Shown here: positions 22,653 to 60,123 of the stretch, one piece after another
How positions within the stretch are numbered: the stretch's first letter is position 1
How the letters are laid out: every line of letters begins with the position of its first letter
Assembly (NCBI GenBank): GCA_035221665.1
Contig: CM069164.1
Location: forward strand, 26,412,001 to 26,476,000
Direction: 5' to 3'
DNA from: Okamejei kenojei
Taxonomy: Eukaryota
DNA length: 64,000 nt
Program-made: the position numbers and the translations under genes
Notes under the pieces: generated by a model
Databases searched by the model: none
What the model saw: only the letters and a program-made list of their open reading frames with translations
Told to the model about the DNA's origin: nothing

Positions 22653-22728
22653 CAGATGGCGAGATGTGTATTCAGCTCCGGCTGAACAACTTCTAATCTT
22701 GTGTGTGGACTCGAAGCAGATGAAGAAG
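22653..22728 (+). mobile_element. 5'-truncated copy of the family-B short retroposon (see 54847-55007)
   Basis: CAGATGGCGAGATGTGTATTCAGCTCCGGCTGAACAACTTCTAATCTTGTGTGTGGACTCG..GAAGAAG aligns with the 3' half of the 54847-55007 element. Confidence 0.75.
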
Positions 22729-53609: not shown

Positions 53610-54846
53610 TTAAGCAATGTGTTGATCGCATTGTTGGATGGAATCAAATCAGCAAAGCCGATTTGTGTTTGCACTTTGGAAAAGTTCATTCAGAAATACG
53701 ATGGTACCAGGCTGGTTTGGGTACGCTGTCAATAATAGTCTTTGTTCCAGCAGCCAATTTGAGGATGCAAAGCTGGCACATGGTAGAAGAAACTCTTCCA
53801 GAATTTATCTGTCTCACATACCCCAGTAGTTTTCTCATTACTTGAGAATATGACTTGGATTGTCTTCCATCAGGCATCAATATAAAATCTTTTCCATGAA
53901 AATGCTCACAAAAATATATTTTAGGAAGCTTTTTAAAAAGTATGTCATGGATATGTTGGTTCAAGTGTATGGGTTGGCATTGGTTTACTTAGCCGTGTTG
54001 GAAATGGTCAAATACATATTAGAACTGGATGAGATTTGGACAAGACCCAGCGATTAGTCAACTTTCTCACTGTTGGAAACTGGATGAGAATTTTATCAAC
54101 ACTTCTAAGGTCCCTGTGGTTCATCTAACACTCAACCATATGCTATAACATTGCTGGTACAATTCTCCAAAAGGAGGTTGAAACATTAGAACTTTTGTTT
54201 CTTTTTTGTTAATTACTTCAATGTATTTTCTCAAGTGTTCAGGGGAAAAAAAGTTCATCTTTCCAATCTTCAGAAGAAAATATATTTCATTAAATATTTT
54301 TGCCTTTTTGGCGATAGTAATTTCTACACACGACTGCATGTAAAGTCATGATGTGTAGGAAGGAACGGCAGATGCCGGTTTAAACCAAAGATAGACACAA
54401 AAAGCTGGAGCAACTCAGCGGGTCAGACGGCATCTCTGGAGAAAAGGAATAGGAGACCATTCTTCAAACTGTATCTTTATATCGCTCAGAGACACAAAAT
54501 GCTGGAGTAACTCAGCAGGACAGGCAGCATCTCTGGAGAGAAGGAATGGGTGACGTTTCAGGTCGAGACCCTTCTTCAGACTCCCATTTTTCTTTCCCCA
54601 GACTCTCAGTCTGAAGAAGGATCTCGACCAGAAACGTCGCTTATTCCTTCTCTCCAGAGATGCTGCCTGACCCAATGAGTTACTCCAAATTTTTGTGTCT
54701 ATAAAAATACACGAGTTACTGAAAAGTAGGATCAACAATAAGGACAAGTTGACTCTACCTTTAAATATGCTGCACATTTAGGTTGGGACATTTCTAATTT
54801 TTGTAAAAGAAAATGTGTCATTGTTAAATGTGCTTTTATAGTACAG

Positions 54847-55007
54847 ATCTTCTTATCGAGTCCACATCACAAGATTAGAAATTGTTCAGCCAGGGCTGAA
54901 CACACTTCTCGGCATCTGCATACAATGGCGCCTTGCGCTTCTTGTGCGTGGTAGTGGAAAGATTGGTGGAAACAGGGCCGCCACGTGAACACTCTTTCCT
55001 TGACCCC
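54847..55007 (-). mobile_element. Family-B short retroposon with an HDV-like ribozyme head
   Basis: 9-bp TSD ATAGTACAG/ACAGTACAG (54838-54846, 55008-55016), AAGAAGA tail, and an HDV-like fold at the 5' end. Confidence 0.75.
54956..55007 (-). ncRNA. Putative P4-less HDV-like ribozyme (degenerate P3)
   Basis: GGGGTC-AA-GGAAAGA-GTG-TTCACGT-GGC-GGCCCT-GTTTCCA-CCAA-TCTTTCC. Confidence 0.6.
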
Positions 55008-55629
55008 ACAGTACAGTTGCTGACATAGAATATTTTTTTAAAACATCGAGCTGCACTCTGGAGCAGTGGTAGAGTTGATGCCTTACAGTGCCAGAGACCC
55101 GGGTTTGATCCTGACTACGGGTGTTGTCTTTACGGAGTTTGTACTTTCTCCTGGTAACCTGCGTGAGTCCACTTTCCGCCAACACTCCAAAGCCATACAG
55201 GTATGTAGGTTAATTGGCTCTGTAAAATTGTAAATTGGTCCCAGTTTGTGTAGGATAGTGTTCATGTACGGTGATCGCCAGTCGGCGTGGACTGGGTAGG
55301 TCAAAGGGCATGTTTCCGCACTGTATCTCTAAACTAAACAAATCTAATTTAACAAATTAACATGATTTCTTTACGGAAACCTAGTGATTTCTCCTCTGTT
55401 GACGAGGGATCTAATAGAGCAAATCTCCATGGGTTACTTTCACAAAGAGCATTCACAGTGCACTGATAAGCATCAGGTCTGATCTCGTAGACATTAAGCT
55501 ATTGTGTTGTGGTCTCCATAGACAGCACTTGAAACAGACAGCATTTAACAAAAGAGTGGCCTACATCTGTATCCTAATTATCGAGGCATGCATAGATAAC
55601 ACAAACATTTCTAAACCAACAGCAATTTA

Positions 55630-59458: not shown

Positions 59459-59512
59459 GGGGTGAAAGATTGCAACCTTCACGTGGTCCGCCCTGTTTCG
59501 ACTAATGCAATC
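59459..59512 (+). ncRNA. Putative P4-less HDV-like (CPEB3-type) self-cleaving ribozyme
   Basis: P1 59459-65/59488-94 with G1.U, P2 GATTGCA/TGCAATC, P3 ACC/GGT, L3 TTCACGT, J4/2 C(59502)TAA. Confidence 0.75.
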
Positions 59513-59596
59513 AACTCGACCTGCACAAACAGAAGATCAAATAGAACAAGTTGCCCTACAACTTTAGGCTGTGCACGCCACACGAAAAAGAAGAAG
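59459..59596 (+). mobile_element. Family-A short retroposon with an HDV-like ribozyme head, inserted in a V-SINE (59255-59705, -)
   Basis: TSD ACGGGGAGAAC/ACGGGGAGAAT (59448-59458, 59597-59607) duplicates host SINE sequence; (AAG)n tail. Confidence 0.88.
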
Positions 59597-60123
59597 ACGG
59601 GGAGAATGTACAAACTCTGTACAGATAGAACCCGTAGTCAGGTTTGAACCTGGGTCTCTGGCACTGGAAGGCAGCAACTCTACCACTACACTACTGTGCC
59701 ACCCCTTCAAAAAGTCTACTAAGGTTTCAACAAAAATGTTTTACTTAAATTAGGCAGGTTACAGGACTACCATTGTCATAGGCACCAACATTAAGGAACA
59801 ATATATGTATTGTCATGTTCATATCTAGAGAAATGCAGGAGATATTGCCGTTGGGTTATAATTGTTATGTGTACTAAGGTACAGTGGAACATTTGATTTA
59901 TGTGTTATCCAGTCAAATTATACCATAGATGAGTACATCAACTCCATGTGCAAAGTGCCCGAGTAACTCAGCAGGTCAGGTGGCATCTGTGGAGAAAAAG
60001 GATGGGTGACGTTTCGGGTTGGGACCCTTCTTCATACCTGAACTAACAGGTGCAGACTTAATACGTCACCGATCCTTTTGCTCCAGAGATGCTGCCTGAC
60101 CTGCTGAGTTACTCCAACGCTAT

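Follow-up and report, generated by a model that had tools for sequence, protein, structure and literature searches.

The window analyzed here, i.e. the whole 64,000-nt stretch of DNA, contains on its minus strand a 160-nt retroposon (positions 54848-55007), one of thousands of copies of a family that we call family B. It is flanked by a 9-bp target site duplication (TSD), whose 5' copy (55008-55016) and 3' copy (54838-54846) are identical at 8 of 9 positions, as the first-pass annotation of this DNA had claimed. The start of the head at 55007 likewise stands, and the end of the element has to be moved from 54847 to 54848, with 54847 better read as flank.

The first 52 nt (54956-55007, minus strand) were identified by a descriptor search, and in the copy L011 by the Rfam model RF00622, as a predicted P4-less ribozyme fold of the HDV/CPEB3 type. 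Its elements are P1 (6 bp; nt 1-6 with 29-34, i.e. 55002-55007 with 54974-54979), J1/2 (2 nt; nt 7-8, 55000-55001), P2 (7 bp; nt 9-15 with 46-52, i.e. 54993-54999 with 54956-54962), P3 (nt 16-18 with 26-28, i.e. 54990-54992 with 54980-54982), the loop L3 with the sequence UUCACGU (nt 19-25, 54983-54989) and a single P1.1 pair C21-G35 (54987-54973). The predicted cleavage point lies immediately 5' of G1 (55007), and the candidate catalytic C42 (54966) belongs to a C-N-A-A motif that occupies the same place relative to P2 in the CPEB3 consensus and in the head families A, C, D and E described below. G1, the 6-bp P1, the 7-bp P2, L3, the 11-nt P4-less linker and the cytosine at 54966 are all present where they had initially been annotated. 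Two changes in the window copy affect P3: C26G (54982) breaks the last pair and C17U (54991) turns the middle pair into a wobble. Nested folding of the heads gave no signal (z-scores 0.2-0.4), as expected for a pseudoknot.

The rest of the element appears to consist of two pieces of a LINE. The segment 54922-54955 is putatively the remainder of the 5' untranslated region (UTR) of the parent LINE, as a similar sequence follows the head in the LINE copy L231 (see below). It is followed by a putative deletion junction with a 5-nt microhomology (4 of 5 identical; 54917-54921) common to the LINE 5' part and the ORF end, by the terminus of the parent Vingi-type ORF with 14 codons and the stop (54875-54921), and by the 19-nt LINE 3' UTR with a short (AAG)n tail (54848-54874). 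Inside the former coding sequence there is a hairpin of 8 bp with a 4-nt loop (54883-54902; fold z-score -2.36). A hairpin in this part had been proposed as the pairing GUUCAGCC/GGCUGAAC; the hairpin exists, and that particular pairing has to be discarded, with the extra C being a change of the window copy. By eye, no similar hairpin was found in the 3' ends of other Vingi families.

The plus strand of the window carries a second, 5'-truncated 3' end of family B or of the parent LINE (22653-22725; 89% identity over 63 nt) and a copy of family A (59459-59598), with an 11-bp TSD (10 of 11 positions matching), which served for comparison. The window is rich in repeats (at least 60 direct-repeat families), including an element that is palindromic in part and occurs ~24 times, and SINE-like families whose tails are of the TAAAC type, a landscape which we take to resemble that of cartilaginous fish genomes.

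Family B and its predicted ribozyme

At least 2,740 first-look candidates for family B were found in the 2.76-Gb assembly, and all 40 candidates scored matched at 92-100%; the truncated copy in the window, used as a query, yielded 205 candidates (40 scored). One full copy was encountered incidentally in 725 kb fetched for other reasons, which fits a population of a few thousand. The head was present in 53 of 55 loci read; these 53 copies are the best matches, hence the sample is biased toward young copies. They fall mainly into two subfamilies (26 and 22 of 53 copies), which are told apart by an insert of 4-5 nt and a single base in the tail. TSDs of 7-16 bp were found in 36 of the 53 copies (four copies in which the tail anchor failed were scored as misses), compared with 3 of 147 flank-swapped controls. 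Copies extending well upstream of G1 had been named beforehand as evidence against a ribozyme-defined end, and 30 of the 36 TSD-bearing copies start within 1 nt of G1. Contigs from four runs (four organisms) cover essentially only 54846-55010 of the window, with unrelated flanks beginning at 55005-55008; they break off at the element edges, which indicates that the boundaries of family B hold outside this assembly. With its simple-repeat tail and TSDs, family B is a retroposon by structure: its elements consist of two parts with a sharp junction, are bounded by TSDs, end in an (AAG)n tail and start at a fixed point, G1. A tRNA-derived SINE was considered and rejected, since ARAGORN (a weak test) reported no tRNA genes in 5 of 5 family B loci and the head is otherwise explained.

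The column majority of the 53 copies is paired at every position, with P3 restored to GCG/CGC, in line with the expectation of the first-pass annotation, for which the loss of either P3 or the J4/2 cytosine from the consensus would have spoken against the fold. The G.G pair seen in P3 of the window copy occurs in only 2 of the 53 copies. G1 is conserved in 48, the G1.U pair in 47 and C42 in 49 of 53, and every pair together with G1 and C42 is intact in 10 of 53. Relative to the majority, the window copy has five changes, including C17U and C26G, and its ribozyme is probably impaired, as judged from these changes. Five other loci (L147-L150 and L152) carry family B with an extra C in the 3' strand of P1, as in CPEB3, without the matching extra G; four of them lie within 0.8 Mb on contig C1 and retain many CpGs. 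They may represent a local subfamily, an intermediate form or an assembly artefact.

In the window, a double-pseudoknot descriptor gave no strict match and exactly one (55007, minus strand) with one P3 mismatch allowed. Strict or relaxed, it had no match in 4.8 Mb of dinucleotide-matched Markov control, and it matched 26 times in 269 loci of this genome (962 kb; many of them fetched for these families, some overlapping). At the gathering level Rfam reported no match in the whole window; the near-majority copy L011 scored 27.5 bits (E-value 1.8e-5) against RF00622, below the 35-bit cut-off, and six B-like copies among the top 30 RF00622 matches exceed it (36-40 bits). Family B and the Rfam consensus of CPEB3 share 19 consecutive identical nucleotides. 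A metagenome scan for the core motif returned 11 loci, mostly in GC-rich coding context, none of which has a plausible full fold by eye.

Change at non-CpG sites amounts to 3.6% for the head against 4.2% for the remainder of the element (14-16% at CpG sites). The head is conserved no better than the rest, hence selection after insertion is not apparent, and copies of family B appear to decay neutrally once inserted. The head combines a 6-bp P1 with a 2-nt J1/2 and no P4; according to PMC4908430, in the part that deals with these features, P1 of 6 or 7 bp is normal in HDV-like ribozymes, and very short J1/2 linkers slowed or stopped another ribozyme of this type.

The parent LINE

Two of 20 hand-picked Vingi loci (L208 and L212) end in a sequence 93% identical to B nt 87-160, and the LINE with a matching tail that had been predicted earlier is a Vingi-type family (family H; 37 matches to an internal piece, 93 candidates for the 3' end). 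The B tail is carried by 16 of 20 and 29 of 30 fetched family H loci (8 overlap between the sets). In 27 of 30 family H 3' ends the match to B begins at nt 87-91, and in none does it begin earlier; this sharp onset identifies the 3' half of B as the last 14 codons, stop, 19-nt UTR and tail of the LINE, i.e. its extreme 3' end (74 nt), which the first-pass annotation had described as a body without recognizing the coding sequence in it. In one case (L247), a truncated family H copy is adjoined on its upstream side by part of a retrovirus-like pol, broken and covering the region of RT and RNase H.

The B head was found in 1 of 20 fetched parent loci, L231, in rearranged form. L231 comprises B nt 1-91, a short inserted repeat, and then the end of the APE domain and the RT of family H. 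Its head is P4-less, with a 6-bp P1, and has lost the 3' strand of P2 by a short deletion; most of APE is deleted, another repeat lies at the break, and the 3' end is missing, so that no TSD ties the head to the LINE part. A second headed family H copy was not found by a query with the APE region (three matches: L231 and two 5'-truncated copies), by a 17-nt pattern for headed parents (three matches: L231 and two chance ones) or within 1.5 kb upstream of 30 parent 3' ends, where no B head was present. L231 may thus be a chance B fragment beside a LINE fragment, in which case B could be a chimeric SINE that took its head from another element and acquired the family H tail by template switching. 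Such an exchange of SINE tails is documented (in the relevant part of PMC5786205), and the head does occur in a single, rearranged parent copy. We nonetheless regard this origin as quite improbable: the L231 match stops at nt 91, the very point at which B continues with the 3' part of the LINE and at which the 4-of-5 microhomology lies, B heads are sparse (one incidental full copy in 725 kb), and the plain deletion route is seen in sister families (L168, L169, L170 and L127; see below). We therefore prefer descent of both parts of B from family H by internal deletion.

A protein search returned 149 Vingi-type matches in this genome, and their C-termini distinguish at least six families. The best-preserved ORF, of family F, is 776 aa long and has 1,171 homologues; the 120 listed among them are 774-1,198 aa long, many on ~3-kb contigs, come among others from Anolis, lancelet, sea urchin and insects, match only RT and endonuclease Pfam models and no RNase H model, and in 72 cases carry a C-terminal CxC..QT..H..C motif. 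Copies of family H share 50-62% identity with the homologue set and ~25% with the Nimb-like and CR1-like ORFs of this genome; their identity to the homologue P0040 from Anolis carolinensis is 40-45%. Two broken elements that bear sister heads, L172 (head family E) and L173 (C), span ~3 kb from head to tail and show a single APE and RT ORF without ORF1, the same C-terminal motif and a short 3' UTR followed by an AAG tail. Vingi is defined, in the available portions of PMC13708176 and PMC3894237, as compact, with a single ORF and no RNase H. The parent LINE fits this type, with the name resting on architecture. A PDB search returned only the RTs of L1, R2 and group II introns.

The 3' end of family F, GGACTCGAAG(AAG)n, resembles that of B, so family F could also have mobilized B; a head of family F was not found. 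The family F protein (L221:1023-3350) is 87% and 82% identical to P0001 and P0002 from two bony fishes, and all other listed homologues are at most 54% identical to it, a pattern which suggests that the family may have spread by horizontal transfer. In a search for the parent with the Pfam model PF14529 (30 loci and 20 fetched regions), the ORFs read match neither family A nor family B; we take them to be Nimb/I-like, L2/Crack-like and CR1-like. Another LINE, L088 (G000:C2:28223500-28231000), presumably Nimb/I-like as well, has two ORFs, of which the second is unbroken (1,276 aa) with an RNase H-like end, and is present in many genomic copies.

Sister heads and the CPEB3 ribozyme

The closest known ribozyme, which the first-pass annotation had missed, is mammalian CPEB3 (RF00622). 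A genome search with RF00622 gave 42 matches among 59 candidates scored, of which 30 exceed the cut-off (best score 66.8 bits), and none in 14 control genomes. The 30 loci comprise, besides the six B-like copies, 12 of family C, 7 of family D and 5 of family E. Heads of families C, D and E possess P4 as well as a P1 of 7 bp, pass the RF00622 cut-off, and reside on Vingi-type elements or their two-part derivatives (L126-L146, L151, L153, L155, L168, L170, L172, L173). The C and E heads are followed by a short UTR and an APE-type ORF. L168, L169 and L170 (C) and L127 (D) are two-part elements, in which the head, followed by an ORF end and tail, is enclosed between TSDs; the 3' end of L127 resembles L218.

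Covariation was looked for between families, with none expected within B, using the majorities of A (20 copies), B (53), C (13), D (7) and E (5). P2 is paired in 35 of 35 cells and P3 in 14 of 15, with both sides changed at 6 of 7 and 2 of 3 positions, respectively. GU after P1 and C-N-A-A before P2 are common to all five families; the distance from P1 to the catalytic C is 7 nt in A and B, 17 in C, 21 in D and 31 in E. The majority of family E (five copies with eroded 5' ends) shows a U.U first pair and one A.C pair. Between A and B, 5 of 7 P2 pairs and 2 of 3 P3 pairs differ on both sides, with every pair kept, which bears out the earlier claim of compensatory stems; a retroposon headed by a predicted P4-less HDV-type fold is what the data show, and compensatory changes conserve the HDV-type fold across five head families. 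Family A (L106-L125), which includes a variant with a 7-bp P1 and one with a 6-bp P1 and an A.C mismatch, is far commoner than B (12 incidental matches in 725 kb, corresponding to roughly tens of thousands of copies).

The suggestion that an ordinary SINE has folded into the pseudoknot by chance could draw on the broken P3 of the window copy and its lack of a gathering-level Rfam match, and is refuted by the 4.8-Mb control and the pairing of P2 in five families. The 19-nt identity to CPEB3 and the coincidence of the fold's first nucleotide with the insertion boundary also speak against it, and its odds are negligible. A different objection is that the head no longer cleaves, being a relic of a Vingi ribozyme that now serves as an internal promoter or as a site for protein binding, with the 5' end set by transcription from G1. 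The B head does lack P4 and one P1 pair when compared with C, D, E and CPEB3, selection is not visible among B copies, and dual heads are known, with that of L1Tc described as both promoter and ribozyme in the passages at hand of PMC8256844. On the other hand, A and B retain G1.U, L3, the P1.1 G and C-N-A-A along with full pairing in spite of the many changed pairs, a DNA promoter has no need of a pseudoknot, and ribozymes without P4 cleave in vitro, according to an excerpt of PMC10879173. We therefore consider loss of cleavage unlikely and retain a ribozyme as the preferred function of the head.

In the first-pass annotation A and B were two independent lineages that share a design. This view is not borne out: B most likely descends from a Vingi-type LINE by deletion, and the heads of C, D and E stand on Vingi coding sequence. 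Family A has the same 7-nt linker length as B and a tail end, ACACGAAAG(AAG)n, as in Vingi families E and G; its own parent LINE did not come to light among the loci examined. As B, C, D and E are tied to Vingi and A shares their features, A and B are relatives and not independent inventions; their common design is best read, from the sequence comparison, as common descent. Since families A-E are related, the covariation demonstrates a conserved structure, not independent origins.

The likeness to CPEB3 is closest in family D. L127 agrees with the RF00622 consensus at 44 of the first 46 nt and 57 of 67 overall, and the family D majority, counted from nt 10, at 51 of 58, with the 7-bp stem of P4 among the matching parts (all counted by eye); it departs from the consensus in the loop of P4, at one base of L3, by one wobble and by one compensatory pair in P2. 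Family D keeps the P4 stem of CPEB3 and 6 of its 7 P2 pairs, both of which are variable among A-E, and this favours descent over convergence. B shares with CPEB3 the P3, L3, single C-G P1.1, G.U first pair and C-N-A-A, and differs from it in having a 6-bp P1, no P4 and a different P2; CPEB3 is a single-copy ribozyme conserved in an intron, whereas B is mobile and multicopy.

Five loci of this genome have matches of similar strength to CPEB-type RRM exons. The one on contig C15, with a 302-aa Q-rich exon, is presumably CPEB3, judging from its N-terminal sequence. The 200 kb upstream of its RRM exons contain no heads of families A-E, and Rfam found no ribozyme match in the 60 kb that hold the CPEB3-like intron; with this intron devoid of a ribozyme, the likeness is to mobile elements and not to an orthologous intron. 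A hairpin in the intron (L300:3915-4017), which matches plant miRNA models below cut-offs on both strands, is probably an inverted repeat.

Proposed mechanism and related systems

We propose, with a probability of about 80%, that family B, a non-coding retroposon, joins the 5' end of a Vingi-type LINE to the final 74 nt of that LINE, that a predicted P4-less HDV/CPEB3-type ribozyme at its 5' end likely frees the element RNA at G1 from longer host transcripts, and that this RNA is likely copied in trans by the LINE enzyme. B would have arisen by internal deletion at the 5-nt microhomology in the LINE. By analogy with R2, L1Tc and their short derivatives, a B copy would be transcribed within a host transcript; as in the chemistry of the HDV family, C42 would then catalyze cleavage 5' of G1, with the head staying on the RNA, and the Vingi protein would recognize the 3' end and, by target-primed reverse transcription, generate full-length copies with TSDs. 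HDV-family ribozymes head R2, L1Tc and their short derivatives according to PMC4035085 and PMC8256844, and the former reports, in the text available, cleavage for NARTco and SIDER heads.

Comparable elements are known. NARTc and RIME (from L1Tc/Ingi) and the R2 SIDEs also join LINE 5' and 3' ends without coding capacity (as presented in parts of PMC5786205 and PMC4035085), and NARTc and the R2 SIDEs carry, according to the same excerpts, an HDV-like ribozyme at the 5' end, i.e. in the same layout as B; derivatives of Vingi-1_EE belong to the same bipartite class of non-autonomous LINEs (PMC3414825, in the portion available). B differs from known SIDEs in its Vingi-type parent, which lies outside the six ribozyme-bearing clades named in the sources as excerpted (R1, R2, R4, RTE, Ingi, LOA), and in combining a length of 160 nt, absence of P4 and a copy number in the thousands within a vertebrate-type genome of 2.76 Gb. 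In lacking P4 and in the short linker between P1 and the catalytic C, B resembles the minimal HDV-like ribozymes (drz-Mtgn-1, theta). A section of PMC10879173 assigns nearly 99% of the minimal forms to Caudoviricetes phages, and all 12 theta matches in its control set of bacteria and eukaryotes (human, mouse, protists) to bacteria. Unlike the phage forms, B heads retroposons and seems to be derived from a P4-bearing Vingi head.

As stated in a passage of a 2021 paper, the CPEB3 ribozyme was not found outside mammals, and its evolution cannot be rooted without non-mammalian outgroups (PMC8233481); an origin from a transposable element was suggested only in general terms (PMC7761336), and the human genome holds a Vingi relic, X12_LINE (per an excerpt of PMC5753468). 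We lean, with less confidence than in the case of family B itself, toward a joint reading in which a CPEB3-type ribozyme generally stands at the start of Vingi elements, an exapted Vingi 5' end that was inserted into the CPEB3 intron before the marsupial/placental split became the mammalian CPEB3 ribozyme, and a P4-less version has been copied here thousands to tens of thousands of times at the head of 140-160-nt retroposons; this would be the first large population of minimal HDV-like ribozymes in eukaryotes. In the portions of the literature covered by our search, we found no report of a Vingi ribozyme or of a link between CPEB3 and Vingi; a prior description elsewhere is possible. The new points are the ribozyme fold on Vingi, the amplification of its P4-less form in a vertebrate-type genome and the sister heads that are near-copies of CPEB3.

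These sister heads likely name a candidate donor for the CPEB3 ribozyme and would provide the non-mammalian outgroups for rooting its evolution. Vingi joins the LINE clades with 5' ribozyme folds, its heads offer natural pairs with and without P4 within one ribozyme lineage, and minimal HDV-like folds are not confined to phages.
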